Part shown: piece by piece, positions 2,996 through 50,114 of the stretch
Position numbering within the stretch: the first letter of the stretch is position 1
Layout of the letters: each line of letters begins with the position of its first letter
NCBI GenBank assembly: GCA_964478545.1
Contig: CAYZIS010000009.1
Coordinates: 2,070 to 66,069 of the forward strand
Origin: an uncultured Thermodesulfobacteriota bacterium
GTDB lineage: Bacteria > Desulfobacterota > Anaeroferrophillalia > Anaeroferrophillales > Anaeroferrophillaceae
DNA length: 64,000 nt
Direction of reading: 5' to 3'
Notes under the pieces: model-generated
What the model saw: only the letters and a program-made list of their open reading frames with translations
Databases searched by the model: none
Told to the model about the DNA's origin: nothing
Position numbers and translations under genes: made by a program

Positions 2996-4087
2996 TTAAG
3001 CAATTCTTTTTCTCATCGTAAATCCGATAAACAGACAAACAATCAGGCCAATGATGACTGCCGGAATGCCATAAGGTCCCACCCCTTTTGGGGAACTGGC
3101 CAGACCGAAATTGTGGGCGAATCCCGCCCCGACGATCATTCCCAGTACAAAAACTGCGGCATCCCCATCACCTTCTCCAGACAGGAAAAGCTGACGTCCG
3201 GGACATCCACCAGCAAGAGCAAAGGCAAGACCGGACAGAGCCATCCCCGCAAAGTTCCAGATCTGCATGGTATGAGCTACCGGCTGACCTTTGAATCCTA
3301 AGTGAAACTGTCCGACGATGAGATTGGTAATAAAAGCAGCAACAATAAGTGCGGCGAATCCTGAAAGCAGGTGGGTTTGACGAAAGAGGATAAAATCGCG
3401 CAGGGCACCCATAGTACAAAACCTGCTGCGCTGGGCCAGGAATCCTATAGCAAGACCAATTCCCAGTGATATAAGAAGGGGGGCGTGTATTGCGCCGGGA
3501 CCTTTCAGGCTGTAAAAAAGGACACCGCTTTTGTTTTGACCTTCAATCTGCGGAAAGGCAATGAGAAGAATCAAAAAACCAAGCATTATGAGCGGCAGCA
3601 TCCATCCCGCCGCCGCATGGGTAGTCTGGGTGCGCCCCAGATTGTAACCTTTTTTGAGGAAGAGAGTTCCGATCCAGATGCCGATGATCAGTCCCAGCAG
3701 GCCGAAAATTGCGTTACCATCACCGCCCGCAAGGCGCAAAGCCGCCCGCCAGGGACATCCTAAGAAAACAAGAGCACCAATCATGGCAAAGGCCCCCAGC
3801 ACAAAGCGGACAATGGGAGCGGAACCGAGCCGGGGACGATATTCCTTGAACAAATATGCAGCCATGAGTGAGCCCATAACAAAGCCAATAATTTCCGGTC
3901 GTATATACTGGACAACCCCGGCACGATGTAACCCGAGGGCGCCGGCAATATCCCTTTCAAAACAGGCTACACAGATACCCATATTTCCAGGATTTCCCCA
4001 CTTCTGTAAAAGGGCCGCAAAGATACCGATAAATAAACCTACGCCTATAATTCCCCCCCGGGTTGCAAAAATATTTTTAAACCTCAT
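2996..4087 (-). CDS. yedE: YedE/YeeE family membrane protein (putative selenium/thiosulfate transport)
   Basis: 363-aa polytopic membrane protein with Gly-rich helices and conserved Cys (CVACFERD, GGCPGR). The gene is in a yedE-yedF pairing. Confidence 0.6.
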   Translation of the reverse strand: MRFKNIFATRGGIIGVGLFIGIFAALLQKWGNPGNMGICVACFERDIAGALGLHRAGVVQYIRPEIIGFVMGSLMAAYLFKEYRPRLGSAPIVRFVLGAFAMIGALVFLGCPWRAALRLAGGDGNAIFGLLGLIIGIWIGTLFLKKGYNLGRTQTTHAAAGWMLPLIMLGFLILLIAFPQIEGQNKSGVLFYSLKGPGAIHAPLLISLGIGLAIGFLAQRSRFCTMGALRDFILFRQTHLLSGFAALIVAAFITNLIVGQFHLGFKGQPVAHTMQIWNFAGMALSGLAFALAGGCPGRQLFLSGEGDGDAAVFVLGMIVGAGFAHNFGLASSPKGVGPYGIPAVIIGLIVCLFIGFTMRKRIA

Positions 4088-4304
4088 AGATTAAACATCC
4101 CTTTCCTGATGAATTGCTGCTCTCCAAGTTATTTTTCATAGTATATATATTGGCATATCCTATAAGTCCAATTCATAATAACGATAGTTTATGGTTGGCT
4201 GATAGGTGTCATCTATGGTAGCTATCGGGCATGAAGAGAGATTTGATAAATATTACCACTCCTCCTCTTCAGTTTTCCTCATCCTGGCCGATTACTAAGA
4301 GTAA

Positions 4305-5874: not shown

Positions 5875-6807
5875 ATGAGCAGGAAAATTGCCGGTAATCT
5901 TGTCGATCTGGTAGGGAATACCCCACTGCTCCGGCTCCCTTCACTGTCCAGTGAGAGTAGAGCGAACATCATTGCCAAGCTGGAATATTTCAACCCCCTT
6001 TCCAGCGTCAAGGATCGAATTGCCATGGCTATGATCAACGCCGGGGAAAAGGCAGGAAAATTAAAACCGGGGGGGTTGATTGTTGAGCCAACCAGCGGCA
6101 ACACTGGTATAGGCCTGGCTTTTGTTGCCGCTGCCCGCGGTTACCGGCTGATTTTGACTATGCCGGATACCATGAGCGTGGAGCGGAGGAATCTGATGCG
6201 GTCTTTAGGGGCCAAGCTCGTCTTAACTCCGGGTAGCGTTGGTATGAAAGGGGCGATTGACCAGGCGGCAGAAATACAAGCTCAAAATCAGGGAAGTTTC
6301 ATGCCCCAGCAGTTCAATAATCCGGCCAACCCGGAAATACACCGGCAGACAACTGCGGTTGAAATATGGCACGATACCGACGGCAAAGTTGACGTGCTGG
6401 TTGCCGGGGTGGGCACTGGCGGCACCATCACCGGCTGCGGAGAATTTTTAAAAGGGAAAAAAGCGGGTATACAGATAATCGCCGTGGAACCGGCAGAATC
6501 CGCTGTCCTTTCCGGCCAGGCAGCTGCCCCCCATCGCATCCAGGGTATTGGCGCCGGATTTATTCCCGAAATACTAAACTTGGGGATCATTGATAAAATT
6601 ATTACAACTTCGTCGGATGAAGCCGGGGCCATGTGCCGACAACTGGCGGAAAAAGAAGGTCTTTTGGTCGGTATTTCCTCCGGGGCTGCAGCCGTTGCCG
6701 CCCTTAAAGTTGGACGGAAACCTGAAAACTTGGGGAAGGTAATTGTGGTTATTTTCCCTGACAGCGGCGAACGCTATCTGTCTACCTGGGCCTTTAATGA
6801 AACATAA
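5875..6807 (+). CDS. cysK: Cysteine synthase A (O-acetylserine sulfhydrylase). Probable ATG at 5875 with an RBS; the ORF track starts at a TTG at 5860.
   Basis: [15 protein letters not shown] (the PLP lysine), a GTGGT-type glycine loop, and about 310 aa. Confidence 0.9.
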
Positions 6808-6966
6808 GTTAAGCGATCAACTGTTAGCTGTCAGCATTTGGCTTTAAAAAATCAAGACATTATGTTCATGAGCAACAAAACCCAAAAGCTGACAGCTTGG
6901 AACAGGAAAAATGTTGTAATTATTGAACAAATAGTTAACGGCTAAAAGCTAATAGCTCAATTCAGG
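6808..6966. mobile_element. MITE-like element, family A copy 1 (about 159 bp, about 45-nt terminal inverted repeats)
   Basis: Left arm 6808-6842 is the reverse complement of the right arm 6930-6966 (GCTAA.AGCTAATAGC...ATCGCTTAA.TT.AGG). The same TIR pair is found at three other loci. Confidence 0.5.
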
Positions 6967-7026
6967 TAAAACATGAATATTCTTTTTTTTACAATGTAAC
7001 CAGACCACTATTATGGAGCAATTATC

Positions 7027-7851
7027 ATGTGGGAATATACGGATAAAGTCAAAGAACATTTTCTGAATCCCAAAAATGTTGGGGAAGTTGAAAATCCTGA
7101 CGGGGTAGGAGATGTGGGTTCCATTGCCTGTGGTGACGCCCTGTACCTGACCTTCAAGCTGGATGAACAGGGACACATTGCCGACGCCAAATTTAAAACC
7201 TTCGGCTGCGCCAGTGCCATCGCTTCCGCCTCAGCCCTGACCGAACTGATCAAAGGGAAAACCCTGGAAGAAGCGGAAAAAATTACCAACCAGGAAATAG
7301 CCAACTACCTGGGCGGCCTGCCAAAAGAAAAAATGCACTGTTCAGTCATGGGGCAGGAAGCCCTGGAACAGGCTATTGCTTCCTGCCGGGGAACTGAAGT
7401 AAAAAAGGCTGAAGGAGAAATCATTTGCGAGTGTTTTGGGGTAACCGATAAGGAAATCGAGCAGGCTGTGCGGGAAAACGGCCTGAAAACAGTGGAGGAT
7501 GTTACCAACTATACCAAAGCTGGCGGCGGCTGTGAACGCTGCCATGATGATATCCGCAAGCTGATTGCTAAAGTTCGGGGAGAAACAAGTCCCGAAGAAA
7601 AAAAACCATTGACCAACATTCAGAAAATCAAACTGATTGAGGAAACCATAGAACGGGAAATCCGCCCCTCTCTGCAGCAGGATGGAGGGAACATCGAACT
7701 GGTTGATATAATTGGCAATCGCGTTCAGGTAGCCACCCGTGGTGCCTGTGCATCCTGTCCTTCAGCTCCTATTACAATGAAGAGCCTGGTGGAGGCAAAG
7801 CTACGGGAATTTGTTTCTCCGGACTTAGTGGTTGAGGAGGTTTCCTCATGA
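7027..7851 (+). CDS. nifU: NifU Fe-S cluster assembly scaffold (N-terminal IscU-like, central [2Fe-2S] BFD-like, C-terminal NifU domain)
   Basis: CGD...C...C scaffold cysteines, CECFGV...CERCH, and a C-terminal CASCPS motif. Confidence 0.85.
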   Translation: MWEYTDKVKEHFLNPKNVGEVENPDGVGDVGSIACGDALYLTFKLDEQGHIADAKFKTFGCASAIASASALTELIKGKTLEEAEKITNQEIANYLGGLPKEKMHCSVMGQEALEQAIASCRGTEVKKAEGEIICECFGVTDKEIEQAVRENGLKTVEDVTNYTKAGGGCERCHDDIRKLIAKVRGETSPEEKKPLTNIQKIKLIEETIEREIRPSLQQDGGNIELVDIIGNRVQVATRGACASCPSAPITMKSLVEAKLREFVSPDLVVEEVSS

Positions 7852-13629: not shown

Positions 13630-14223
13630 ATGAAGATAAAAATAAAAAAACTGGCGATGGTGCAGATGGGATATTCATTCCGATCCCGTCTTGAAGCCTC
13701 CAGTAGCGGTGGCGTCGCGGTTATCCAGATGAAAGACCTTCTTGATGACAACACGGTTGGCTGTGGTGACTTGGTAAAAATTGATATGGAGATGGTCAAA
13801 GAACATCACCTTGTGCAGAAGGGAGATTTGGTTTTCAGGTCGCGTGGACACGTAACTACGGCAGCGGTTCTTCTTGAGGAACCGGGGAAGGCGGTTGTTG
13901 CCGCTCCTCTATTAAGGATAAGGATTACCAAGCCGGACAGGGTTTTGCCCGAGTATCTGAACTGGTACATCAGCCAACGGGATGCGCAGATTTTCCTGAC
14001 CAGCAGAGCCAAAGGCACGGTCCAGAAGATGATCAGCAAACAGGCGATTGAGGAGCTTGAAGTTTCATTGCCAAGTTTGGAAAAACAGAAAAATATCGTT
14101 GAGCTGGCATCGCTTATCGCGAGAGAACAAAACCTGCTTCAGCAGATTTCCGAAAAGCGGGAGAAATACATCTCAACAGTACTCATGCAGTTTGCCAAAG
14201 GAACCACGAATGCACACCAATAA
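13630..14223 (+). CDS. hsdS: Type I RM specificity subunit, half-size HsdS (single target-recognition domain plus a conserved coiled region)
   Basis: LPSLEKQKNIVELASLIAREQNLLQQI is the HsdS conserved repeat. Length 197 aa. A -35/-10-like promoter (TTGACA at about 13562) lies upstream. Confidence 0.7.
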   Translation: MKIKIKKLAMVQMGYSFRSRLEASSSGGVAVIQMKDLLDDNTVGCGDLVKIDMEMVKEHHLVQKGDLVFRSRGHVTTAAVLLEEPGKAVVAAPLLRIRITKPDRVLPEYLNWYISQRDAQIFLTSRAKGTVQKMISKQAIEELEVSLPSLEKQKNIVELASLIAREQNLLQQISEKREKYISTVLMQFAKGTTNAHQ

Positions 14224-14592
14224 ACACGAATTATTACTGAAGGATGAAGTATACCAAGTCGTGGGTTGCACTATGGAGGTTTTGAATACGCTCGGTCACG
14301 GGCTACTGGAAAAGCCGTATGAAAATGCATTGGTGGTCGAGTTTGGGTAAGGGGAATCTCTTTCCAGCAGCAGAAACGATTTCCAGTGGTTTATAAATCA
14401 GTTCAGGTCGGGGAATATATTCCAGATTTGATCGCTTTTGATCAAATGGTGATTGACACCAAAGTCATCGAATCTATTGGCAATAATGAAAGAGCCCAAA
14501 TCATCAACTATCTCAAAATAACCGGTCTACGGGTCGGGCTCATCCTCAATTTTAAGCATGCAAAATTAGAGTGGGAACGTATCGTCCTATGA
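14210..14592 (+). pseudogene. GxxExxY protein (PD-(D/E)XK nuclease, PDDEXK_3 family) split by a 1-nt frameshift in a G-run near 14344-14349
   Basis: The N-terminal part reads EVYQVVGCTMEVLNTLGHGLLEKPYENALVVEF. It continues in another frame as VRGISFQQQKRFPVVYKSVQVGEYIPDLIAFD...AQIINYLKITGLRVGLILNF, matching the family end-to-end. Confidence 0.6.
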
Positions 14593-14648
14593 AGATTATT
14601 CGTGTAAATTCGTGTCCATTAGTGGTTTCAAAATAAGGAGAATAAAAC

Positions 14649-16277
14649 ATGAACAGCAAGATTGACCAGAGAGACATCAACAACGCGGCCTGGGCGGCGT
14701 GTGACACCTTCCGAGGGGTTGTTGATCCGGCCCAGTACAAAGACTACATCCTGGTGATGCTGTTTTTGAAATACATCTCCGATGTCTGGCAGGACCATTA
14801 CGATGAATATCAAAAGCAGCATGGCGATGATGATGTTCGTATCCGCCGCAAACTCGAGCGTGAACGCTTTGTTCTCCCAATAGTGAAACTGACGGAAAAA
14901 AATGATCAGACCGGTGAAGAAACGGTGCTAGATGAGTTCCCCGCCAACTACTACAGCCTTTACGAACGCAGATCAGCCGCCAATATCGGTGAGCTGATCA
15001 ACATCGTTCTCGACCATATTGAAGAAAACAACAAGACCAAACTTGAAGGGGTTTTCCGCAATATCGACTTTAACAGCGAGGCCAATCTTGGCAAGACCAA
15101 AGACCGTAACCGCCGCCTGAAACAGCTGCTGGAAGATTTCCATAAACCACAACTCAACATGAAGCCCAGCCTCGTCTCCGAGGATGTGATCGGCAACACT
15201 TATATCTATCTGATCGAACGTTTTGCTTCCGACTCCGGAAAGAAGGCCGGGGAGTTCTTTACCCCGCTGAAGGTTACCGAACTGGTCGCCAAGCTGGCCG
15301 GCCCTAAACCGGGCGACCGTATCTGCGACCCGGCCTGCGGCTCCGGCGGTCTGTTGATTCAGGCAGCCAAACAGGTGGGCGACCTGTCTGCGGGCAACAC
15401 ACAGGCAGGCCGTAACTTTGCCCTCTTCGGCCAAGAATCAAACGGCAGCACCTGGGCGCTCTGCCGCATGAATATGTTCCTCCACAGTTTTGACAGCGCC
15501 CGGATTGAGTGGTGCGATACGCTGAACAGCCCGCTCTTGGTTGAAAATGATCGCCTGATGAAATTCAACTGCGTGGTGGCCAATCCGCCATTTTCGCTGG
15601 ACAAATGGGGCGCTGAGAATGCTGAGAGCGATCAATACAACCGCTTCTGGCGCGGCGTTCCGCCAAAAAGCAAAGGCGACTGGGCCTTTATCAGTCACAT
15701 GGTGGAAATTGCACTGGAAAAAGAGGGTCGTGTGGTCGTGGTGGTTCCCCACGGGGTGCTGTTCCGAGGCGCTGCCGAGGGACGTATCCGGGAAAAGATG
15801 ATTGAAGAAAACCTGCTTGATGCGGTGATCGGCCTGCCGGGCAACCTGTTTCCGACCACCAATATTCCGGTGGCGATTCTGGTCTTTGACCGCTCAAGGG
15901 AAAAAGGCGGTGCCCGCGAAGCGTGCAAGAATGTTCTCTTTATTGATGCCAGTCGGGAGTTTGTCTCCGGTAAAAACCGGAATACCCTTTCTGAAGAACA
16001 TCTGGCCAAGATCATGGAAATCTACACGGCCAGAACCGAAGTGGAAAAATACGCCCATGTGGCTGACGTTGTAGAGATCAAGGAAAACGACTTCAACCTC
16101 AACATCCCCCGCTATGTGGACACCTTTGAAGAGGAAGAGGAAATCGACATCGATGCGGTTCAGCTGGAAATTGAGGCGCTGGAAAAAGAGCTGGCAGAAG
16201 TGCGGGTGAAAATGGCCGAAAAAATGCAGCAAATCCAGAGAAACCACGAATGCACACAAATAGACACGAATGTTTAG
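14649..16277 (+). CDS. hsdM: Type I RM DNA methyltransferase subunit (N6-adenine)
   Basis: VANPPF catalytic motif, a DPACGSGG AdoMet motif, an HsdM N-terminal domain, and 542 aa. The last 11 codons are supplied by repeat element R. Confidence 0.9.
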   Translation: MNSKIDQRDINNAAWAACDTFRGVVDPAQYKDYILVMLFLKYISDVWQDHYDEYQKQHGDDDVRIRRKLERERFVLPIVKLTEKNDQTGEETVLDEFPANYYSLYERRSAANIGELINIVLDHIEENNKTKLEGVFRNIDFNSEANLGKTKDRNRRLKQLLEDFHKPQLNMKPSLVSEDVIGNTYIYLIERFASDSGKKAGEFFTPLKVTELVAKLAGPKPGDRICDPACGSGGLLIQAAKQVGDLSAGNTQAGRNFALFGQESNGSTWALCRMNMFLHSFDSARIEWCDTLNSPLLVENDRLMKFNCVVANPPFSLDKWGAENAESDQYNRFWRGVPPKSKGDWAFISHMVEIALEKEGRVVVVVPHGVLFRGAAEGRIREKMIEENLLDAVIGLPGNLFPTTNIPVAILVFDRSREKGGAREACKNVLFIDASREFVSGKNRNTLSEEHLAKIMEIYTARTEVEKYAHVADVVEIKENDFNLNIPRYVDTFEEEEEIDIDAVQLEIEALEKELAEVRVKMAEKMQQIQRNHECTQIDTNV

Positions 16278-16305
16278 AACCACGGAAAGCTCAAGGAGAT
16301 TCAGC

Positions 16306-16900
16306 GATGAATAAAGACAAAGGCAAACTTTCCCTTCAAGATGAATTAGCCGAATTTCTGCTGTACACCACTCCAGATGGAGGAGTGAAGGTGGAGGTTT
16401 TCCTTTACGGCGAGACCGTCTGGCTACCGCAGAAACGTATTGCAGAGCTCTTTGGGGTTGGTGTGCCTGCCATTTCCAAGCACTTGGATAATATTTACGC
16501 AAGCGGTGAACTGGAAAAACCAGCAACTGTTTCCATTTTGGAAACAGTTCAGCTGGAAGGGAAACGTCAAGTGGCGCGATCTGACACCACTATCGGGAAA
16601 AACTATCTGTCAGAAACGGAAATCAAACAGTTGGAACGTACTGTATCCGCATTCTTTGACTACATTGAAAACATCGTTGAACGCCGCAATAGCTTTACCA
16701 TGAAAAGCTTTACAGCGAGCGTGAATAAGTTTTTGGAGTTCAATGAATATAAAATTCTGGAAGGTCACGGCTCTATTTCCCGCATGCAGGCGGAAGAGAA
16801 GGCTTTCGGCGAATACGAAAGGTTCAACAAGACACAGCTTATAGATTCTGATTTTGACAGGATGGTGAAGGAGTTGTCTACGGAGGGGAACCACGAATGA
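16306..16900 (+). CDS. RhuM-family N-terminal-domain paralogue (short). The track ORF starts at 16250, inside the repeat.
   Basis: YTTPDGGVKVEVFLYGETVWLPQKRIAELFGVGVPAISKHLDNIYASGEL parallels the RhuM N-terminus of the 21515 gene. The conserved leader AAGGAGATTCAGCGATG precedes it. Confidence 0.5.
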
Positions 16901-17039
16901 GCATGAATAGACACGAATAATTAGAACCACGGACGACACGGAAAAACACTGAATTGAAAGCGTTTGATTTTCCGTGCCTTCCGTGCCTTCCGTGCTTTCC
17001 GTGGTTAAAGATGGCCGATAAGCTCAAGGAGATTCAGCG

Positions 17040-17933
17040 ATGATAAATATTGATATTGAAAAACATCACCATCAGACATTTGAGAAAATCAAGCAGACGG
17101 CACAGAATGGTTCTGAGTTCTGGATGGCGCGCCGACTAGCCAAGCTCCTCGACTACGCTGAGTTTCGCAATTTTCTGCCGGTCATCGAAAAGGCGAAAAA
17201 AGCCTGTGAAAATAGTGGTCAGTCCGTGAAAAACCATTTCGTGGAAATGCACGAGATGGTTTCAATTGGTTCCGGAGCTGAGCGAAAAATGAAATCCTAC
17301 GGGCTCTCCCGTTATGCCTGTTACTTGATTGTACAAAATGGCGACCCATCCAAGCCGGTCATCGCCAACGGTCAGACCTATTTCGCCATGCAGACCCGAA
17401 GGCAGGAATTAGCCGATGACCAGGCTTTTCAGCGCCTCAAGGAGGATGAAAAGCGCCTTTTTCTGCGCAACGAAATGCGGGAGCACAACAAACAGCTGGT
17501 GGAAGCTGCTCAACAGGCTGGTGTTGAATCCAATCTCGACTTTGCCATATTCCAGAACCATGGCTACAAAGGACTGTACGGTGGGCTGGACGCCAAGGGG
17601 ATTCATAAACATAAAGGATTGAAAAAGAGCCAACAAATTCTCGACAACATGGGTAGCACCGAACTTGCCGCCAACCTTTTTCGCGCTACGCAAACCGAAG
17701 AAAAACTGCGCCGGGAAAATATTCAGGGCAAGACCAAGGCTAACAAAACCCATTTTGAAGTCGGTAAAAAAGTCCGCCAAACCATCGAAGAACTTGGTGG
17801 AACCATGCCGGAAAATCTCCCGACACCGGACGAAGACCTAAAGAAACTGAAAAGACGGGTGAAGTCGGCAGGGAAAAAGCTGATCAAAGGGTGTGAACTG
17901 CCGGAAAGAGGAACCACGAATGCACACGAATAG
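17040..17933 (+). CDS. dinD: DNA-damage-inducible protein D (DinD) family protein
   Basis: The N-terminus HHQTFEKIKQTAQNGSEFWMARRLAKLLDYAEFRNFLPVIEKAKKACENSG closely matches the DinD family. Such genes are frequently embedded in Type I RM loci. Confidence 0.6.
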   Translation: MINIDIEKHHHQTFEKIKQTAQNGSEFWMARRLAKLLDYAEFRNFLPVIEKAKKACENSGQSVKNHFVEMHEMVSIGSGAERKMKSYGLSRYACYLIVQNGDPSKPVIANGQTYFAMQTRRQELADDQAFQRLKEDEKRLFLRNEMREHNKQLVEAAQQAGVESNLDFAIFQNHGYKGLYGGLDAKGIHKHKGLKKSQQILDNMGSTELAANLFRATQTEEKLRRENIQGKTKANKTHFEVGKKVRQTIEELGGTMPENLPTPDEDLKKLKRRVKSAGKKLIKGCELPERGTTNAHE

Positions 17934-18053
17934 ACACGAATGCTTAGAACCACGGACGACACGGAAAAACACGGAATTGAGAACGTTTAATCTTCCGTGC
18001 CTTCCGTGCTTTCCGTGGTTAAAAATAGCCGAGAAACTCAATGAGATTCAGCG

Positions 18054-19250
18054 ATGAACAAAAAAGATGCTCTCCCAAAAGGATGGAAAAACATAAAGCT
18101 TAAAAAGCTTGTTACTCAGGAAATCAAGAATGGCTATTCACCCAACTGTCCTGAAGAACCAAACGGGAGTTGGATTCTGGGCTTAGGAAATTTAACCGAA
18201 AACGGGTTTGATCCATCCCAGGCAAAACCAGCTCCCAAAGGTGATAGCAGAGTAAAAGACTTTTTACTTGAACCTGGTGATTTTTTAATTAGTCGATCTA
18301 ACACGTTAGACAAGGTTGGAAGGACAATGTTGTTCAGAGGTGAAATTGAAAACTGCTCTTATCCAGATTTACTCATGAGATTTCGTGTAGATGAAACTTA
18401 GGTTACAAATGAATTTTTGGAGGGGTATTTAAGGAGCTCAGTAGTCAGGAAATACATCCAAGGCTGCGCCTCTGGTACAAGCAACAGCATGGTGAAGATC
18501 AATAAAACAATTGTCGAAAAAATACCTATTGTTTTGCCTCCCCATCCAGAGCAAAAAGCCATTGCCGATTTGCTGTCCACCTGGGATGAGGCCATCGAGA
18601 AAACCGAACGGCTGATTCTGGCGCAGGAGAAGCGGTTTAAACAACTGCTGCGGGAGTTGTTAAGAGAAAAAGTCGAGCTGGGGAAAATTGAATTAGGGAA
18701 GGTTTGTAAGATAACAAAAGGAAAACAGTTAAATATAGCTCATATGAATCGTGATGGTTATTATTATGCCTTAAATGGCGGGATTAAACCATCTGGAAGA
18801 ACTGATGATTGGAACACCAAAGCAGGAACCATAACTATCAGTGAAGGTGGAAACTCATGCGGATATGTAAACTTCAATACACAAAGATTCTGGTCTGGTG
18901 GGCATTGTTATTCACTTCTTAATCTAAAAAAATCTGTAGACTCACACTACCTGTTCTTTTATCTAAAAATGAACGAGCCCAAACTTATGAACTTACGGGT
19001 TGGATCTGGACTCCCCAACATACAAAAGAAAGACGTTGATCGGTTTAAAATATCGATCCCACCGCTCGCAGAACAGCATCAAATAGCCGAGACATTATCC
19101 GCCGCCCAACAGGAAATCAACCTGCTGAAACAGCTTGCAGAAAGATACAAAACCCAGAAACGCGGTCTGAGGCAGAAGATGCTCACGGGCGAATGGCGGG
19201 TAAAACCTGAAATCATTACCCAATATGCGGAAGAGGTGCCATGCAAATAA
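18054..19250 (+). pseudogene. hsdS: Type I RM specificity subunit (two TRDs) interrupted by an in-frame TAG at 18399-18401. Both halves are in the same frame.
   Basis: TRD1 (18054-18398), then TAG, then VTNEF-LEGYLRS..., central conserved region, TRD2, and the C-terminal conserved ISIPPLAEQHQIAETLSAAQQEINLLKQLAERYK. Confidence 0.65.
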
Positions 19251-19840
19251 AGCTTACCTATTACAAACCGCAGACGTTGATCCCGGTTATCGGTCTGCTC
19301 TGGGCTCTTTCATCGTGGGCGCTTTCTAAGCTTTGGGGTTACGGCTTCCTACAAGGCACCGGGCCAACCGCCATCGTGATATTTTTTCTAACAGTCTATG
19401 ACAAGTGGCTGTGGAAATACCCTTTGTTTAACTTAATGAACACAATCCCAAACTTGAACGGCATGTATGAAGGAAAAATATCCTTTCACTGGAACGGACA
19501 GGCTGAATCAAAAGACTGTGAACTAGAAATCAAGCAAACCTGTTCAAACATAAAGGTAAAAACGATTTTCACGAAAGAAGGCGAAAACGATACACAGTCC
19601 GTCAGCACCGAAGCATTCATAAAAACTGACGAGGTTAGCGACCAGCATCTCTATTTTTATTATCGCAGTCGTGGTTCCGGGATGGATGGTGACACTCTTG
19701 ATCAGCACGAGGGTATGAATGTTTTGGAGATTCTGAAGAACAACGGATTGATCCAGCTTGATGGATACTATTTTACCAACCGTAATCCTCAAACAAAAGG
19801 CTGCATGAAAGCTACGAAAACAAACAAAGGAGCTAAATAA
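19241..19840 (+). CDS. Small membrane protein with two N-terminal TM helices and a beta-rich C-terminal domain (Cap15-like or 2TM-type CBASS effector candidate)
   Basis: TM1 is LIPVIGLLWALSSWALSKLW and TM2 is GPTAIVIFFLTVYDKWLWKY, followed by about 130 aa of beta-type sequence. The start overlaps the hsdS stop, and the stop overlaps the next start (TAATG). Confidence 0.4.
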   Translation: MQIKLTYYKPQTLIPVIGLLWALSSWALSKLWGYGFLQGTGPTAIVIFFLTVYDKWLWKYPLFNLMNTIPNLNGMYEGKISFHWNGQAESKDCELEIKQTCSNIKVKTIFTKEGENDTQSVSTEAFIKTDEVSDQHLYFYYRSRGSGMDGDTLDQHEGMNVLEILKNNGLIQLDGYYFTNRNPQTKGCMKATKTNKGAK

Positions 19841-20823
19841 TGGATACACATAAACTGTTCTCTGATTTCGATGCTGTAATTCGACTAAACACCTCAAAAA
19901 TAAGTAAATTAAAAAGCAACCGCACAGCACTCCGCAATAAAATTAAAGATCACTTCAAAAAGAACAACTGGACCGCACCAAAATTCTACTCTCAGGGTTC
20001 CTTCCCTTTGAACACAAACCTAAATCCGATCAAAAAAACTACAAGTGATGGAGATGTTAAAGAAGAGTATGACTTGGATGATGGCGTGTATTTCATCTGC
20101 CCAAAATCAGAGCGCAAAGAGCCAGCGACTTATCATGATCGCATCAAGAAGGCTGTGGATGATCATGCCGAAAGCGTCATAGACAAAACAACCTGTGTTA
20201 GGGTTGTATACATAGATGGACATCACATTGATCTGCCGTCTTATTGGCTTGAAAAGGACGGTAACACACCACAACTTACTCACAAGTCTAAAGGTTTTAC
20301 TGATAGCGACCCGAAAGCTTTTAATGAATGGGTTGATGACAATATTTCCAGAGCCAGTAACAATGGTCAACTCCGCAGAATCATCCGCTACTTAAAGGCA
20401 TGGAAGAATTATCGTGAAAATAGCAACAGTACTCTGGAGCTACCGTCAGGTTTCATTTTAACGATTTTGGCATGCAATCATTTTTCAAAGAACAGCCGTG
20501 ATGATCTATCCTTCAAAGGAACAGTTGAATCTATCAAAAATTCACTAAATTTAAGCTTCACCTGTTATCGTCCAACCGTCCCCACCCATGAGGAGCTTTT
20601 GTTTGATTATTCAAAAGATACAGTAATAAAAGAGCTAACCAGCCTGATCGACAACGCACAGAAAGCGATTGATTCGGATTGTGAGAAAAAAGCGTCTGAA
20701 TTCTGGCACAAAGTGTTTGGGGATCGTTTCCCGTCGGGTAAAGAGAAGGATGAGAAGCCCAAGCAATCTACAGCATCCAACACAACCAGAACAAAGGTCA
20801 GTGCTCCATGGGCATCGTTCTAA
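19840..20823 (+). CDS. cGAS/DncV-like nucleotidyltransferase (CD-NTase, SMODS-domain) candidate
   Basis: Pol-beta NTase signature QGSF...SDGDV...YDLDDG, a later VRVVYIDGHHIDLP (third acidic strand), and a C-terminal helical region RRIIRYLKAWKNY typical of CD-NTases. Length 327 aa. Confidence 0.5.
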   Translation: MDTHKLFSDFDAVIRLNTSKISKLKSNRTALRNKIKDHFKKNNWTAPKFYSQGSFPLNTNLNPIKKTTSDGDVKEEYDLDDGVYFICPKSERKEPATYHDRIKKAVDDHAESVIDKTTCVRVVYIDGHHIDLPSYWLEKDGNTPQLTHKSKGFTDSDPKAFNEWVDDNISRASNNGQLRRIIRYLKAWKNYRENSNSTLELPSGFILTILACNHFSKNSRDDLSFKGTVESIKNSLNLSFTCYRPTVPTHEELLFDYSKDTVIKELTSLIDNAQKAIDSDCEKKASEFWHKVFGDRFPSGKEKDEKPKQSTASNTTRTKVSAPWASF

Positions 20824-21440
20824 CAGAACAAGATAAACAAGAGTTGGCTCAAGATTACCCTGCGCTTAACTGTAGTTTGCCGCGAGGGGTAATCTGGGGA
20901 ACCTTGGAGTTGGCTTGTTCATTCGATGAGTCCGCAAATGAAGTTGTTCATGAAGACTCATTTGATAATTACATCCGCGACTGTTATGAGATACGCGTCG
21001 ATTTCAATCAGGCAGACACTTTTGGTTTTCCCAAAGTGTTCGAGGAGTCGGGAATCATTAGAAATTTTGCGGACAGCAATGGTATCAAGCCAGAAGATTT
21101 GCATGTAAACAAAGATGATGCTGACAGCTGCTGTTTGGGGATCTTCCCTGAATATCATTGGACAGGTGCCGCTTCATTCATACGAGATAAGGTAGTGCCG
21201 TTTTTTTACTGGCAGTCTTATCGACGCTTCTATGAGAAAAAACCATGGAAAGGCTATACACATGGCAACCGTGGCATTGTGGAGGCGATGAGTATGCCTC
21301 TCAATGAATCCTCAAAAGGTCACTCACGTAATAAACGATGCCCATGCGGAAGCGGCCAAAAATACAAAAAATGTTGCATGTCTCGAGATGCGATTCTGCG
21401 AAATAAACTATCCAAATCTATTACATCTCGAAAGAGTTGA
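20808..21440 (+). CDS. UBC/E2-like fold protein with a C-terminal SEC-C metal-binding motif (candidate Cap2-like E2-only accessory)
   Basis: Pattern LAQDYPALNCSLPRGVIWGTLEL...YEIRVDF...FPKVF...LHVNKDDADSCCLGIFPEYHW resembles the UBC fold (an HPN-like HVN plus a catalytic Cys). It ends CPCGSGQKYKKCC. The 5' end overlaps the NTase gene by 16 nt. Confidence 0.35.
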   Translation: MGIVLTEQDKQELAQDYPALNCSLPRGVIWGTLELACSFDESANEVVHEDSFDNYIRDCYEIRVDFNQADTFGFPKVFEESGIIRNFADSNGIKPEDLHVNKDDADSCCLGIFPEYHWTGAASFIRDKVVPFFYWQSYRRFYEKKPWKGYTHGNRGIVEAMSMPLNESSKGHSRNKRCPCGSGQKYKKCCMSRDAILRNKLSKSITSRKS

Positions 21441-21442
21441 TA

Positions 21443-21505
21443 ATGACCAATTTCCAAATAAACGAAAAGCATCTTTCTCAAATCCCTGCGATTTTGAGTT
21501 ATTAG
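21443..21505 (+). pseudogene. Duplicated 5' end of hsdR (20 codons, MTNFQINEKHLSQIPAILSY*) left upstream of the inserted rhuM
   Basis: AAATAAACGAAAAGCATCTTTCTCAA is repeated at 21454-21480 and at 22558-22587 (the true hsdR start MHNFQINEKHLSQLPAV). Confidence 0.5.
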
Positions 21506-21514
21506 GGGTGAGTT

Positions 21515-22555
21515 ATGAATAATGATGGCTTGAAAAACAACTCTGAGCTCATGATCTACCAAACCCCTGATGGGAGTATCAAAATAGATGTCCGCCTTGA
21601 GGATGAAAGCGTCTGGCTGACACAGGCGCATATGGCGAAGCTGTTTCAGGTGAAACCGCAGAATATCACCATGCACCTGAAAAACATCTATGCCGAGGGT
21701 GAACTATCCGAAAAGGCAACTTGTCAGGAATTCTTACAAGTTCAAACCGAGGGTTCCCGTCAGGTTGAACGAAAACGGAAGCTTTACAATCTCGACGCAA
21801 TTATTTCCGTGGGTTACCGTATCCAGTCTCAAGTGGCGACCCACTTCCGCATCTGGGCGACGCAACGACTGAAAGAGTACATTGTCAAAGGCTTTGCGTT
21901 AAACGATGACAGATTCAAAAGTGGTCAATCAATGAACTATTTCACGGAACTGCAGGAACGCATCCGCGAAATTCGGCTCTCCGAGCGGTTTTTTTATCAG
22001 AAGATCAAGGACATCTACACCACCAGCATTGACTATGACCCCAGGGATGAAAAGACGATTGAGTTCTTCAAGATCGTTCAAAACAAGTTGCTTTGGGCGA
22101 TCAGCGAACAGACGGCGGCGGAGCTAATCTATCGTCGCGCGGATGCGGCATTGCCCCTAATGGGAATGCAGTCGTTCGATAAGAAAGGCGTGCCGGTCCG
22201 GAAAGGCGATGTTAACATCGCCAAAAACTATCTTCAGGAAGATGAAATAAAACTGCTGGGGTTACTGGTGGAACAGTATCTTGCCTTTGCCGAAACCATG
22301 GCACAACAGCACACAACGATGTATATGAAGGACTGGATTGGGCGGCTTGATGCCATCATTCAACTGAACGGACGGGAACTGCTCACTCACGCCGGAAAGA
22401 TCAGCCATCAACTGGCGTTGGAGAAATCGGCCCGGGAGTATGAAAAATACCAAGAAACACAAAAGCAACTTCAGCACAAAGAGAGTCTGCGGGAACTGGA
22501 GCAGGATCTAAAGCGGCTCAAAAAACCTGGGCAGGCTGGAGACGGCAATGCATAA
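21515..22555 (+). CDS. rhuM: Virulence protein RhuM family (Fic/DOC-related) protein
   Basis: 346 aa. LMIYQTPDGSIKIDVRLEDESVWLTQAHMAKLFQV...ISVGYRIQSQVATHFRIWATQRLKEYIVKGFALNDDRFK is the RhuM family signature. Confidence 0.8.
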   Translation: MNNDGLKNNSELMIYQTPDGSIKIDVRLEDESVWLTQAHMAKLFQVKPQNITMHLKNIYAEGELSEKATCQEFLQVQTEGSRQVERKRKLYNLDAIISVGYRIQSQVATHFRIWATQRLKEYIVKGFALNDDRFKSGQSMNYFTELQERIREIRLSERFFYQKIKDIYTTSIDYDPRDEKTIEFFKIVQNKLLWAISEQTAAELIYRRADAALPLMGMQSFDKKGVPVRKGDVNIAKNYLQEDEIKLLGLLVEQYLAFAETMAQQHTTMYMKDWIGRLDAIIQLNGRELLTHAGKISHQLALEKSAREYEKYQETQKQLQHKESLRELEQDLKRLKKPGQAGDGNA

Positions 22556-25500
22556 CTTTCAGATAAACGAAAAGCATCTTTCTCAACTTCCGGCGGTGCA
22601 ACTGCTGATATCACTGAGCTATGAATATATTTCTCCGGTTGAAGCGCTCCGTGAACGACAGGGAAGAGTTGCCAATGTCTTGCTGGAAAACATTCTCCGC
22701 AATCAGCTCAAAGAAATCAACCGCATTCGCTACAAAGGAAATGAATATCTGTTTAGCGAGGAAAATGTTCAGTCCGCCATCCAGAAGCTGAAAAACATTA
22801 AATATGACGGTTTGCTGAAAACCAATGAAGCAATTTATGATCTGATCACCCTGGGAACGGCCATGGAGCAGACCATCGAGGGTGATTCTAAAAGTTATAA
22901 TTTGAACTATGTTGACTGGCACAATCCCGGCCGCAACAGATTTCACGTGACGGTTGAATACAGTGTTGAGCGGTCCCGGAGCACCGAGACCACCCGGCCG
23001 GATATTGTCCTCTTTGTTAACGGCATTCCTTTTTGCGTGATTGAATGCAAAGCCCCACAGATTGAAGTTGAACAGGCAGTCTCCCAATCCATTAGAAATC
23101 AGAACGACGACTATATTCCGAAGTTATTCATCTATACCCAGTTGGTTCTGGCATTCAATAAGAACAGCGCGATGTTCGCAACCACCGGAACTGCAGCAAA
23201 GTTCTGGTCCATCTGGAAGGAACCACGAATGGACACAAATAAACACGAATACAATAAATTGAAGAAACTGGTAGATGAGTCTGTTCGTGTTGAAATTGAA
23301 CCCAAATCCTTTGAGATTCACTCAGAGCAAAATATTAGTGAAGATTCGTGTTCATTCGTGGTTTCGAAAGAGCGTTTGGTGACGGAGCAAGACAAAGCCC
23401 TTTTTGCTCTCTGCCGCCCGGAACGCCTGCTGGAACTGGCTTGGAAGTTCATTGTTTTTGATGGCGGCATTAAAAAGATTGCCCGCTATCAACAGTATTT
23501 TGTCATCAAGTCCACTCTGAACCGGATCAAGCATTTTGACCGTAACGGTTCCCGCAAGGGCGGTGTTATCTGGCACACGCAGGGGTCAGGGAAATCCCTG
23601 ACCATGGTGATGCTGGCCCGGAATCTGGCCTTGGATCCGGAGATATTGAATCCTCGCATTGTTCTGGTCACCGACCGGGATGATTTGGACAAGCAGCTGG
23701 GTAATACTTTTGCCGCCTGCGGACTGGAAGCCAATCGGGCAACATCGGGAAGAAATCTGCTGGAGTTGGTAGCTGAAAAAAACTCCGGCATTATCACCAC
23801 GCTCATTCATAAATTCGACAAGGCTTACGCGGTAAGAAAATACCAGGATAAATCCCCCGACATTTTCATTCTTGTGGATGAAAGCCACCGTACCCAGTTC
23901 GGCTCGTTTTCCGCCCGTATGCGCCAGATGTTTCCCCATGCCTGCTATCTGGGATTTACAGGTACTCCGTTGCTGAAAAAAGAGAAAAACAACTTCACCA
24001 GGTTCGGAGAACTAGTGGAGCCGCATTACTCCATTTCACAGGCGGTAGAAGACGGCGCGGTCGTTCCACTCTTGTATGAAGGACGGCATGTGGAGATGAC
24101 CCAGAACAAGGCTGCTGTGGACCTCTGGTTCGAGCGTCATACCCAAGGCTTGAGCAAAGAACAGCAGGCGGACCTGAAACGTAAATATGCTCGGGCGGAA
24201 ATGCTGAACAAGGCTTATCAGGTCATTTACATGAGGGCCTTTGATATCAGTGAACACTTTCGGGCTAATTGGCAGGACACCGGGTTCAAGGCACAACTGG
24301 TCGCGCCAAATAAGGCTTCGGCGCTTAAATACCATGCGTATTTGAATGACATCGGCATGGTCAGTTCGGAAGTTGTTATTTCCCCTCCGGATATGCGTGA
24401 AGGCTATGAAAAGACGGACGATGAAACGACTGATGACGTGGTAAGGTTCTGGCAGAAAATGGTGAAACGCTATGGCAGCAAGGAGGAGTATACCAAGCAG
24501 CTCATCAACCAGTTTAAACACGGGAGCGATCCCGAAATCCTTATTGTCGTCGATAAGCTCTTAACCGGCTTTGACGCGCCAAGAAACGCGGTACTTTATT
24601 TATGCAGGGTTCTCAGGGAACATTCGTTGCTTCAGGCTATCGCGCGGGTTAACCGGATCCATGAAGGCAAGGAGTTCGGTTTTATCGTCGATTATGCAAA
24701 TGTTCTTGGTGAGCTGGATAAAGCGCTGACCATGTATAGCGCGTTTGAGGGTTTCGACGAATCGGATCTTGTCGGTACTCTTACTTCCATCAACAGCGAA
24801 ATTGAAAAACTGCCGGGGCGCTATTCGGATTTATGGGATTTCTTTAAGTCGGTAAAGCATTCTTATGATGAAGAGGCATACGAGGTTTTGCTTGCTGATG
24901 ATGAATTAAGGGAAGAGTTTTATAGTCGTCTTTCTGAATTTGGTAAAAACCTCGGTATCGCTCTTTCTTCTGAAAAGTTTTTGTCTGAGACAGATGAAAA
25001 AACTCTGTCCAGATACAAGGCTGATCTCCGGAAATTCCAATCGCTTAAGGCATCTGTCAAGTTGCGCTATGCTGAAGCTATTGATTACCGGGATTATGAG
25101 CCGAAAATCAAGAAGCTGCTGGATACCCATATTCAAGCCAATGAGGTTATCCAGCTCAACGAGCCGGTTAACATCTTCGATGACAAAATGTTCAATCAGG
25201 TAAAAGAGGAGCAAGGAGTTTATCAAACCAGGAAAACCACGGCCTCCAAAGCCGATATGATTGCTCACGCAACGAAAAAAGTGATTACGGAAAAAATGTT
25301 CGAAGACCCTGCTTTTTACGAAAAATTTTCAAAGCTGATCCAGCGGGCTATTGAAGATTTCAGAGCAAAAAGAATATCGGATCTGGATTATCTCAATAAA
25401 GTCGTTGAGGTCAGGAATAAAGTCGTCGGCAAGGTTCATGATGATGTTCCTGATAAACTTTCCGGCAATGAAGATGCCATGGCCTATTATGGGATACTGA

Positions 25501-25769
25501 AACCGTTCCTCGAAAATAACAAATTGAATGAAGAAGACCTTGAAGCTGCCACCGCAGATACGGCCATCGCTCTAAACGGTATTTTGGAAAAACACAAAAA
25601 AGTTCATTTCTGGGATGATGAGGATGCCCAGAAGCAAACGGTTAATGAGATTGACGATTACCTCTATGATGAACTTAAAACAGAAAGAGGTATCGAACTG
25701 TCGCTGGATCAGATGGATGACATCATTGAAAAGGTTCTGCAGGTGGCGAAACACCGGAGTTACAAATGA
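22548..25769 (+). CDS. hsdR: Type I RM restriction subunit HsdR (SF2 helicase/nuclease). It contains a 147-bp in-frame palindromic insertion at 23219-23365.
   Basis: QGSGKSLTMV (Walker A), VDESHR (DEAH box), and an N-terminal PD-(D/E)XK region (DIVLFVNGIPFCVIECK). Length 1073 aa. Confidence 0.9.
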   Translation: MHNFQINEKHLSQLPAVQLLISLSYEYISPVEALRERQGRVANVLLENILRNQLKEINRIRYKGNEYLFSEENVQSAIQKLKNIKYDGLLKTNEAIYDLITLGTAMEQTIEGDSKSYNLNYVDWHNPGRNRFHVTVEYSVERSRSTETTRPDIVLFVNGIPFCVIECKAPQIEVEQAVSQSIRNQNDDYIPKLFIYTQLVLAFNKNSAMFATTGTAAKFWSIWKEPRMDTNKHEYNKLKKLVDESVRVEIEPKSFEIHSEQNISEDSCSFVVSKERLVTEQDKALFALCRPERLLELAWKFIVFDGGIKKIARYQQYFVIKSTLNRIKHFDRNGSRKGGVIWHTQGSGKSLTMVMLARNLALDPEILNPRIVLVTDRDDLDKQLGNTFAACGLEANRATSGRNLLELVAEKNSGIITTLIHKFDKAYAVRKYQDKSPDIFILVDESHRTQFGSFSARMRQMFPHACYLGFTGTPLLKKEKNNFTRFGELVEPHYSISQAVEDGAVVPLLYEGRHVEMTQNKAAVDLWFERHTQGLSKEQQADLKRKYARAEMLNKAYQVIYMRAFDISEHFRANWQDTGFKAQLVAPNKASALKYHAYLNDIGMVSSEVVISPPDMREGYEKTDDETTDDVVRFWQKMVKRYGSKEEYTKQLINQFKHGSDPEILIVVDKLLTGFDAPRNAVLYLCRVLREHSLLQAIARVNRIHEGKEFGFIVDYANVLGELDKALTMYSAFEGFDESDLVGTLTSINSEIEKLPGRYSDLWDFFKSVKHSYDEEAYEVLLADDELREEFYSRLSEFGKNLGIALSSEKFLSETDEKTLSRYKADLRKFQSLKASVKLRYAEAIDYRDYEPKIKKLLDTHIQANEVIQLNEPVNIFDDKMFNQVKEEQGVYQTRKTTASKADMIAHATKKVITEKMFEDPAFYEKFSKLIQRAIEDFRAKRISDLDYLNKVVEVRNKVVGKVHDDVPDKLSGNEDAMAYYGILKPFLENNKLNEEDLEAATADTAIALNGILEKHKKVHFWDDEDAQKQTVNEIDDYLYDELKTERGIELSLDQMDDIIEKVLQVAKHRSYK

Positions 25770-26494
25770 TGGAGGCTGCAATTCATAACGATAAACGCTC
25801 GCTTGTTTATGGGCGCAAGACCATTGATTACAGTCTTTTCTATTGCGATAGAAAAACGATGGAAATTGCGGTTCATCCTGACAGTACCGTCATTGTCAAA
25901 GCACCGATCGACTCCGATATTTCGTTGATCGAGAAAAAGTTAAATAAAAGAGGACGATGGATTTTCAGACAGTTGAACTACTTCAGGCAGTTTAATCCCA
26001 AAACACCTGATCGATGCTATGTGAATGGTGAAACCCACCTGTATCTTGGAAAGCAATATCGCTTAAAACTGACGGAGGGCTCAGAAAATTCAGTAAAGCT
26101 GGTCCGGGGCTTTTTTTATATTACCTGCCGTGATGTACCAAGCCCGGCAACAGCCAAAAAGCTTTTGCACAAGTGGTATTTGGAAAAGGCGGCCAGGCAA
26201 TTCAAAGAAAGCATGGATCGCTGCTGGCAAAAATTCTCCAACTTCGATTTTAGCAAACCCAATTTATCGATCAAACGAATGCAAAAAAGATGGGGCAGCC
26301 TTTCAGAAAAAGGAACGGTGACACTCAATACCGATCTGATCAGAGCACCCAAGGAATGTATTGAGTACGTTGTAACCCACGAACTGTGCCATTTGAAATA
26401 TCGTAATCACAGCCCCGAATTTTATAAGCTGCTCGATTCTGTTATCCCCGGCTGGGAAAAGATAAAACACAGACTTGAACTCAGTATGATGTGA
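25766..26494 (+). CDS. M48/YgjP-like zinc metallopeptidase (DUF45), commonly co-encoded with hsdR
   Basis: HELCHLKYRNH is an HExxH motif. Length 242 aa. The start overlaps the hsdR stop. Confidence 0.6.
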   Translation: MMEAAIHNDKRSLVYGRKTIDYSLFYCDRKTMEIAVHPDSTVIVKAPIDSDISLIEKKLNKRGRWIFRQLNYFRQFNPKTPDRCYVNGETHLYLGKQYRLKLTEGSENSVKLVRGFFYITCRDVPSPATAKKLLHKWYLEKAARQFKESMDRCWQKFSNFDFSKPNLSIKRMQKRWGSLSEKGTVTLNTDLIRAPKECIEYVVTHELCHLKYRNHSPEFYKLLDSVIPGWEKIKHRLELSMM

Positions 26495-38887: not shown

Positions 38888-39030
38888 GATGCCCGCAACC
38901 CAAAAGAAATTTTCTGAGGATGTTCCGGCATGGCTCTTGCTCATTCTTGCCGGCTGTCCATGGCCTGCCTGTCGGCAGACACGGCTGCGAGCCAAGCCCG
39001 AACATCCTGAAATGTATTCCCGGCAATACC
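38888..39030. repeat. Palindromic repeat element, family B copy 1 (about 145 nt)
   Basis: CGCAACCCAAAAGAAATTT..GGATGTTCCGGCATGGCTCT.GCTCATTCT.GCCGG...GAGCCAAGCCCGAACATCCTGAAATG.ATT.CCGGCAAT. Shared with 50115-50169 and 51968-52133. Confidence 0.6.
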
Positions 39031-43944: not shown

Positions 43945-44068
43945 TTAGTGCTGTTTCAGTGCGACATCGTGAGATGCCGTTGCTTTTCCCGGCGAATAGA
44001 GCGTAAAAATTGACCTGTTTGAGCCCTGGAAGGGCGAGTTTGGCAATTTTGGCGCCATGAACCGTTGG

Positions 44069-44141
44069 AAATGCAGGCAAACGAGCGCCAAAAAGCGCTG
44101 AGATCAGCTCCGGTTAACTGCTGCAAGAACCTAACCGGACA
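44069..44141. repeat. Repeat family C copy 1 (about 70 nt)
   Basis: AAATGCAGGCAAACGAGCGCCAAAAAGCGCTGAGATCAGCTCCGGTTAACTGCTGCAAGAACCTAACCGGACA. Near-identical copies at 46533-46606 and 54272-54329. Confidence 0.6.
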
Positions 44142-46390: not shown

Positions 46391-46653
46391 CCTTGAGGGA
46401 CAAAGCCATCAACTTTACTTAAAACCCGGAATAGTGTATTGATACTGGTCTTTAAAAACTCAACTTTCTGAGTTGTTTTAAAAAACAGCCCAGCCTGTCG
46501 CCGTGCCTGCCGGCAAGCTGGACGGTGGGCTGAAAAAGCAGGCAATTGAGCGCCAAAAAGCGCTGAAATCAGCTCCGGTTGACAGTATGCAACTTTCTAA
46601 CCGGGCACTGCTGAGAAATTTGAGTTTTAAAAAATAACATCCGGGAAAACATC

Positions 46654-47850: not shown

Positions 47851-47852
47851 CA

Positions 47853-48214
47853 GAAGTGAGCACTTAGCCGTTAGCTTTTAGCCTTTAACTTCGTAAAATA
47901 AGTCTCTTACGTTAATTTCAAAGTAAATATTCGGTATTGTTTTCAAACTACCGGGATTGAGGTCATTTCTTGACGAAGGCGTATCGTGATATTTTCTTTT
48001 ATTGGTGATTTTCAATAGCCTTTGTCAAGATGTGACCCCTCGCGAAGCGGGGCGAAGCGAACCAACTTAATTACCCGCTGTGAGATAGTGTTTTATTACG
48101 TAGCCGAATAGTTACATTTCAAACAACACCTGATGGCTGAAGATTTGTTATGACAAACTTCCTGTAATCATAAACTAATAGCTAACCGCTAATAGCCAAT
48201 CGCTTAAATTCAGG
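47853..48214. mobile_element. MITE-like element, family A copy 2 (about 360 bp, same TIRs)
   Basis: The right TIR 48164-48214 (GTAATCATAAACTAATAGCTAACCGCTAATAGCCAATCGCTTAAATTCAGG) pairs with an inverted left arm at 47853-47895. Confidence 0.45.
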
Positions 48215-48231
48215 GTAGAAGGAGAATAAAG

Positions 48232-50049: not shown

Positions 50050-50114
50050 TTACCGGCAAACAACTACCAATTTTCCGGTCACTATGCTACATCTAACCAA
50101 AATGGGTCTATATC

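Follow-up and report, generated by a model that had tools for sequence, protein, structure and literature searches.

In prokaryotes, miniature inverted-repeat transposable elements, called MITEs, are non-coding, AT-rich units of <500 bp that carry terminal inverted repeats (TIRs) and flanking direct repeats, reside in intergenic regions and are present in multiple copies; according to review, their inverted repeats typically span ~4-30 bp (PMC10969869, PMC3184786). Here, we describe an element of this type that is very probably represented by four copies in a 64,000-nt stretch of DNA (referred to below as the window; positions 2,070 to 66,069 of contig CAYZIS010000009.1, assembly GCA_964478545.1) from an uncultured Thermodesulfobacteriota bacterium. 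An earlier note on the window, made from the sequence letters, drew attention to four intergenic loci where an AT-rich core is flanked by inverted arms, and all four are found where it placed them, to within a few bases.

The described families Correia/NEMIS, ERIC, RUP and Nezha are like the present element in size, TIRs, direct repeats, AT-richness and the very stable hairpins predicted for their transcripts. In addition, the mobility of Nezha was shown by a comparison of empty and filled orthologous sites, and evidence of the same kind is available for the present element. The main difference from known MITEs is found in the TIRs, which here are ~48 nt long, are built from heptamers and change in length in steps of 7 nt. 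According to the summaries in PMC3184786 and PMC10969869, Chunjie of Geobacter uraniireducens likewise belongs to a deltaproteobacterial host group, is about 180-235 bp long and, like the present element, spares the operons and intergenic spacers that it enters and sometimes overlaps protein genes. The 21-bp inverted and 9-bp direct repeats given there for Chunjie (Chen et al. 2008) differ from the ~48-nt and 3-bp repeats seen here, which implies a different transposase family. The present element displays all structural features by which prokaryotic MITEs are recognized in PMC10969869, a known partner excepted; full-text searches of the literature for its termini and heptamer strings gave no match, and in this way no similarity to a described family was found. 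It is an undescribed MITE family, abundant in uncultured sulfate-reducer-like "Deltaproteobacteria" lineages. As a kind of element it is ordinary, and its notable traits are the long, slippage-prone heptamer TIRs, the stop-laden ends and a clear empty site.

The closest architectural parallel to the arms is found in Geobacter metallireducens, where class 2 and class 3 sites form intergenic pairs on opposite strands, each composed of 3-5 tandem repeats of 7-9 nt, at variable spacing (Aklujkar et al. 2009, PMC2700814). These pairs were hypothesized to be binding sites of a global regulator of the IHF/HU type, and no analysis of duplications or empty sites was reported (PMC2700814). The repeat units, MTYCTGA and TCTCCGTSY, differ from the NNTTAGC of the present element, while the present data suggest that the paired regulator sites of G. 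metallireducens could be the ends of MITEs or transposons. Intergenic heptanucleotide arrays are also known as the cyanobacterial STRR sequences, as the TAACTGA repeats of Beggiatoaceae (PMC4679880) and among long simple sequence repeats (Mrazek 2007). Like the present arrays, they are intergenic and often abut start or stop codons, with a patchy occurrence in Cyanobacteria, Bacteroidota and others. However, the known arrays are direct, consist of a single unit and are unbounded, whereas the present ones make up the inner part of a bounded TIR with a terminus, a core and target-site duplications. Heptamer-built TIRs link the literature on MITEs with that on intergenic heptamer arrays, which have so far been separate.

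The outermost 13 nt of each ~48-nt TIR form a unique terminus (consensus ACCTAAGTTGAGC), behind which 3-7 NNTTAGC heptamers stand in tandem (e.g., GATTAGC TGTTAGC CATTAGC GTTTAGC); in the right arm, this arrangement is present as its reverse complement. The element begins with ACNNAAGTT, and its opposite termini read ACCTAAGTTGAGC and GCTCAAYTTAGGT. The inverted arms of about 45 nt described in the earlier note are thus present, but can now be refined to tandem heptamers within a longer TIR. When 71 copies are aligned together with their flanks, conservation increases from about 30% to >80% exactly at ACCTAAG... on the left and falls after ...TTTAGGT on the right, i.e., it stops abruptly at ACCTAAGTTGAGC...GCTCAATTTAGGT, and the outermost bases of the aligned copies are ACC...GGT. 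The boundaries proposed previously are close to these edges, except that the elements begin 4-6 nt further to the left. The consensus ends pair as inverted repeats at 39 of 50 positions, and within the individual window copies the corresponding match covers 30-34 of ~50 positions. Between the arms resides an AT-rich, non-coding core of ~70 nt, which includes a small hairpin (CACCC-AAC-GGGTG). Copy lengths are distributed in 7-nt classes (151, 159-160, 165-168, 174, 181 and 188 nt, with 3-7 heptamers in the arms), and the modal length of 165-168 nt (42 copies) is that of a short non-coding MITE. Slippage acts on the arms, with lengths stepping by 7 nt; Tandem Repeats Finder assigns a period of 7 to copy 4 (60729-60758) and a period of 14 to copy 2.

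The similarity between the loci extends well beyond what is expected by chance. A pattern derived from the arm has 10 matches in the window, as compared to 0.19 expected, and 0 of 100 shuffled sequences reached 10, so that the possibility raised in the earlier note that the arms align merely by chance does not hold. Repeat searches connect entire elements and not just their arms, with alignments that span 105-115 nt at 74-79% identity, and the arms of different copies are 82-88% complementary. With a profile built from the copies, the expectation values (E) of these reach 1e-29 to 7.5e-51 in one orientation, as compared to about 1e-6 to 1e-10 in the reverse one, which shows that the core is shared and directional. 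The G+C content is 34-38% in the elements and 48% in the window.

Evidence for transposition was obtained from the flanks. At 27 of 42 distinct sites, the 3 bp on either side of the element are identical, while permutation of the right flanks (2000 trials) gave on average 1.8 and at most 8 exact 3-bp matches. The signal is confined to boundary shift 0, and the duplicated triplets are varied. Within the window, copy 4 displays a perfect duplication (TTG/TTG), in copies 1 and 3 two of the three positions agree, and the flanks of copy 2 are ambiguous.

The site between cysK and nifU, which holds copy 1, is empty in the loci L253, L254 and L256, where NifU is 95% identical and the spacer is 46 nt long (...ACTGAA ACATAAACGATCTTTTTTTACAATG...). 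The empty sequence, ...ACTGAA ACATAAACGATCTTTTTTTACAATGTAACCAG..., and the filled sequence, ...AATGAA[ACATAAGTT...CAGGT]AAAACATGAATATTCTTTTTTTTACAATGTAACCAG..., match base for base once the element and one copy of the duplication are removed. The point of insertion is located in cysK, between the codon GAA and the terminal ACA-TAA. Here, the element terminus (ACN-TAA) restored the Thr-stop of cysK, the original ACATAA persists downstream as ACATGA, and the 46-nt spacer of the empty state is still present downstream of the element. Homologues of NifU at 86-93% identity also have an adjoining cysK, with spacers of 37-106 nt (277 nt in L251) that lack the element. No empty site was seen among the loci collected before the comparison of NifU relatives, and an apparent empty site between mcp and cheW in L260 was rejected because the contig ends inside the element. 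In L255 (~1000-1300) and L251, with NifU 93-95% identical, the MITE in the cysK-nifU spacer is replaced by a sequence related to another repeat family of the window (...GGGATGTTCCGGCATGGCTCTCGCTCATTCT..., at 38894-38947, 50114-50167 and 51970-52023, and also at 38985/52080), i.e., this spacer was struck independently by different repeats.

From the duplications, the empty site and the presence of the family on at least 119 metagenome contigs, the four repeats are very probably copies of a non-autonomous MITE family, which was the first of two interpretations put forward in the earlier note; the scenario in which the copies are confined to four sites and lack duplications does not hold. A number of observations nevertheless weigh against this assignment. 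Mobility is deduced from comparative sequence rather than observed, a perfect duplication is found in just one of the four window copies, and an autonomous partner was not found in about 1.7 Mb of collected loci, in a plasmid collection or in viral contigs; accordingly, the transposase with matching TIRs that the earlier note proposed to look for was not found in the collected loci. Facing TIR pairs 0.3-6 kb apart were identified as the outer ends of separate MITE copies, and relaxed TIR pairs around one open reading frame (ORF) hold housekeeping genes (CobS, UbiA, rplB, DnaB, acetate kinase). A multi-copy ORF family is absent from about 0.8 Mb of MITE-bearing contigs, a blastn search of the plasmids gave one short heptamer match, and the viral scan gave one chance match. 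The element may also have gained a host function secondarily, e.g., in hairpin processing or protein binding. Solo TIRs proved to be truncated or nested copies, none of which marks an autonomous partner, and a further 10 kb of the source contig contain zero additional copies and zero transposase genes, i.e., there are four copies in about 74 kb.

In the mechanism that we propose for the MITE, a transposase encoded elsewhere would act in trans on the element, either by cut-and-paste or by copying. This transposase would most likely be a DDE enzyme, for which cuts staggered by 3 nt would yield the 3-bp target duplication. The heptamer iterations, which also grow and shrink via slippage, would likely constitute multiple transposase binding sites, while the copies themselves are presumably neutral. 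Several families in the ISfinder table create duplications of 3 bp, and IS982 has AC at its end. On the basis of a 3-bp duplication and AC...GT termini, we take IS3, IS30, part of IS5 (IS5/IS1031) and IS982 to be candidate partners, which is to be regarded as an unconfirmed lead only.

The termini also offer an explanation for the location of the copies. Each of the three frames meets a stop codon at most 19 nt from an element end (ACC TAA; CTA AGT TGA; CCT AAG TTG AGC GAT TAG) and, because the ends are inverted repeats, this is so from both sides. Among 27 long ORFs of the wider set that reach an element end, 14 stop within the first 20 nt, at +1, +6, +11 or +19; the latter three positions are the terminus stops of the three frames, while at +1 the first base of the element completes a stop codon begun in the flank. 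Another 6 of the 27 stop at most 12 nt before the element. With stops in every frame of both termini, a gene tolerates insertions into its last few codons, and for this reason copies are found at or on stop codons in short intergenic spacers. Without the element, the spacers are about 15-54 nt at all four window sites, which suggests that the element entered gene pairs that were closely spaced and probably co-transcribed. The gene pairs (cysK-nifU, traB-galE, TPM-lemA and mcp-cheW) are those named in the earlier note, but the placement exactly between a stop codon and the next gene needs correction; in copy 1 the cysK stop codon TAA (6805-6807) occupies element positions 4-6, and in copy 4 the mcp stop codon TGA ends on the first base of the element. 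The family is thus a clean example of a MITE that colonises gene-dense operons, where the all-frame stops let the last codons of a gene be replaced almost silently.

A metagenome scan with a pattern that spans the junction of core and arm identified the family on at least 119 contigs, where a profile found 75 full-length and about 99 partial copies among the matches listed, many of them end-cut. Short contigs that bear exactly the NifU or MCP of the window break off inside the element, as is the case for assemblers at high-copy repeats. Independent assemblies of the same organism (L122, L123, L124 and L260) stop 84-145 nt into the MITE. This is a practical sign that the MITE fragments short-read assemblies of the lineage, and the element explains the assembly breaks at these points.

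A scan of a genome collection with an arm-only pattern gave >120 loci from many phyla, which proved to be generic AGCTAAN heptamer arrays; among these, only L100, from a Deltaproteobacteria metagenome-assembled genome (MAG), is related to the element over the full length and shares its core. A Gammaproteobacteria MAG (L005) harbors a related MITE at 3999-4152 and 7454-7608, which has the terminus ACCTAGAAAAAGCAG followed by TTAGC heptamers and is flanked by the 3-bp duplications TGA and TCA, indicating that elements of such design cross class boundaries. The combination of NCCT...AGGN termini with 3-bp duplications is shared only by L005 and L100 (duplication GCT) among the array pairs from other phyla. 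A sister family with a like end type (ACCTACGCTGAGCAATTAGCGGTTAGCC...) and another core is found on the 12.8-kb contig L126 (610-657, 820-867 and 11617-11663), which in addition to these three copies holds a standard copy at about 8944.

An alternative interpretation of the arms is that the heptamer arrays are operator-like iterons, i.e., paired binding sites of a chromosomal or global regulatory protein, rather than transposon ends. The architecture fits that of the G. metallireducens pairs (opposite strands, 3-5 tandem 7-9-nt repeats, intergenic, variable spacing; PMC2700814). Furthermore, TTAGC/GCTAA arrays are paired in a polar manner across many phyla: of the GCTAA arrays at genome loci from other phyla, 39 are preceded by a TTAGC array at most 300 nt upstream, as in the MITE, while 7 pairs have the opposite arrangement. 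Because the stability of the duplex is equal in either arrangement, this bias points to a directional process. However, transposition predicts unique termini (here of 13 nt), 3-bp duplications and an empty site, none of which a protein-binding site would need. In addition, the arrays decay without compensation, and no candidate protein was identified. We consider regulator binding a very unlikely primary explanation, and a transposase itself binds such iterons, so that the two explanations partly merge.

The AGCTAAN arrays from the genome collection (L001-L120) reside in intergenic or intercistronic gaps of Acidobacteriota, Cyanobacteria, Bacteroidota, Gemmatimonadota, Chloroflexota and others; examples are found at L066:2950-4560, L015:2585-2740 and L011:5742-5877. 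In the acidobacterial locus L066, the gaps on either side of rplB and the next one downstream have the structure stop - (AGCTNTT)n - spacer - (AGCTAAN)n - start. The genes located between paired arrays are housekeeping genes, not transposases, and with a crude boundary rule the other 35 array pairs revealed no defined terminus and no duplication signal. It is conceivable, although doubtful, that the cross-phylum arrays belong to a very large superfamily of miniature elements, as their remains or their active ends, or are iterons recognized by one widespread protein family; the present element would then be the first of them for which termini, duplications and an empty site are clear. If the polar arrays were indeed related across phyla, the scope of these findings would be much larger.

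The second interpretation offered in the earlier note was a structured regulatory element, i.e., a cis-regulatory RNA or small RNA gene in which an arm-to-arm hairpin between genes would serve to terminate transcripts, stabilise them or process them. When folded, the consensus gives an arm helix of 38 pairs (-62.3 kcal/mol), and single copies fold better than shuffled sequences (z = -4.2, -3.1 and -1.9). However, the pairing of arms is no better within copies (0.910) than with partners swapped between copies (0.915; 42 copies), which shows that the arms are conserved in sequence, not in structure. In the 38-pair helix, 4 compensatory cells are seen as compared to 141 broken ones, i.e., there is no covariation, and RNAalifold finds essentially no consensus structure for the 42 copies. 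Folding of full elements, which had been proposed as a check, gave minimum-energy structures that disagree among the three short window copies, with copy 3 forming a full arm-to-arm hairpin (-40.2 kcal/mol). All four window copies share one orientation relative to their co-directional flanking genes, as would suit an RNA element, but this is consistent with chance, and over the 42-site set the orientation is unbiased (++6, --10, +-7, -+6). At the gathering threshold, a search of the whole window against Rfam gives tRNA-Sec alone, and the best match of copy 4 has E = 0.93. Consensus scans of the window copies revealed no terminator after the hairpin in any of them, the sole terminator-like match being a weak hairpin of 5 bp in the core, on its antisense strand. 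The duplication and the empty site, moreover, demonstrate that the element was inserted. As the primary explanation, a structured RNA is largely refuted, and we regard it as highly improbable.

The same consensus scans found no sigma-70-like promoter in the gene direction in any window copy, and the earlier proposal that the promoters of galE, nifU, lemA and cheW reside in repeat-derived DNA is therefore not upheld. The window copies of the MITE are probably carried passively in transcripts, as long hairpins, and nothing indicates their recruitment for regulation. In annotation, they should be masked as a mobile repeat and not be entered as promoters or RNA genes.

Repetitive extragenic palindromes (REPs) and the mosaic elements that they form (BIMEs) are short, GC-rich imperfect palindromes, and REPs are not known to carry target duplications. 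An origin as REP/BIME palindromes that a RAYT (tyrosine) transposase disseminated, or as heptamer arrays arisen independently by slippage at each site, would account for the intergenic location, the palindromic symmetry and the 7-nt steps in arm length. In addition, no long simple repeat is more common in bacteria than the heptamer (Mrazek 2007, cited in PMC4679880). However, the probability of such an origin is close to nil, as it is refuted by the common ~70-nt core and unique termini, from which it follows that whole units share descent, and by the 3-bp duplications of an element that, with ~165 nt and 34-38% G+C, is not a GC-rich palindrome of 20-40 nt.

The genes that flank the four MITE copies encode PALP/CysK, NifU, a TraB-family protein, a GalE-type epimerase, TPM, LemA, MCP and CheW. 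Copy 1 is located at 6802-6967 on the plus strand (166 nt, profile E = 2.5e-44, edges from the 71-copy alignment), in the gap between the cysK-like gene and nifU. Its left TIR (6802-6850, plus strand) consists of the terminus ACATAAGTTAAGC and NNTTAGC-type heptamers (TIR profile match 6803-6850, E = 4.5e-9), and its right TIR (6920-6967, minus strand) of GCTAANN heptamers followed by ...CAATTCAGGT (TIR profile match 6967-6920, E = 7.1e-10). The left copy of its target-site duplication, GAA at 6799-6801 (plus strand), follows from the 3-bp duplication rule and the empty site in L253 (...ACTGAA/ACATAAACG..., where the slash marks the insertion point), and the right copy, AAA at 6968-6970 (plus strand), differs from it by a single base.

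Copy 2 (~47850-48215, plus strand) is found between the traB-family gene and galE and gives split profile matches at 47848-47923 and 48096-48221. The alignment of copies shows that 216 nt are inserted between its left arm and the core (47890-48105, plus strand); this insert is unique, i.e., a blastn search against all collected loci matches the insert itself alone. The termini are degenerate, with a possible but ambiguous TAG/TAG duplication, and copy 2 is the oldest-looking of the window copies.

Copy 3 (56636-56794, plus strand, 159 nt, profile E = 1e-45) resides in the gap between the TPM-domain gene and lemA, has the flanks AAA/ACA and a left arm that is one heptamer shorter. Directly before it, a 24-nt tandem repeat (2.3 copies, 56556-56611) encodes the Gly-rich C-terminal tail of the TPM-domain protein. 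Copy 4 (60719-60883, minus strand, 165 nt, profile E = 7.5e-51) is located between mcp and cheW, with its TTG duplication at 60884-60886 and 60716-60718 (minus strand; flanks GGTTTG/ACGCAAG ... TTTACGC/TTGATG, where slashes mark the element edges). Two tandem MCP paralogues (60883-62994 and 63092-64000, minus strand, about 72% protein identity) are found here, upstream of cheW-cheB-cheR. The identity to the family consensus is 78% for copy 1, 71% for copy 2 (insert removed) and 85% for copy 4, which is the closest, while the window copies are mutually 65-74% identical. The window copies are old, at 65-85% identity to the consensus, and copy 4 looks to be the youngest.

The window also harbors a repeat family that is distinct from the MITE but shares its design (14197-14246, 14595-14627, 16237-16294, 16884-17006, 17907-18020 and 23216-23365). 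Its inverted ends read AACCACG...CGTGGTT and its arms are built from tandem units of 9-10 nt, of CACGAAT type in one arm and CTTCCGTGC repeated 3-4 times in the other. With CTTCCGTGC x3, this family is nearer than the MITE arms to the class 2 sites of G. metallireducens, TCTCCGTS[Y] x3. Its copies punctuate a defence island (13630-26494) with a type I restriction-modification system, composed of hsdS fragments, hsdM (14649-16277) and hsdR (22548-25769), where the copy at 23216-23365 resides inside the open hsdR frame. Interleaved with these are two RhuM-family genes and genes for a Bro-N protein, a SMODS/DncV-like cyclic-nucleotide synthase (19840-20823) and a YgjP-like peptidase. Another repeat of ~55-85 nt (AAAAGCGCTGAAATCAGCTCCGGTTGACAGTATGCAACTTTCTAACCGG) is found upstream of genes at 44066-44118, 46531-46614 and 54253-54336, with 89-95% identity between copies. 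Finally, positions 926-1013 of the minus strand encode a selenocysteine tRNA (Rfam RF01852, 52 bits).

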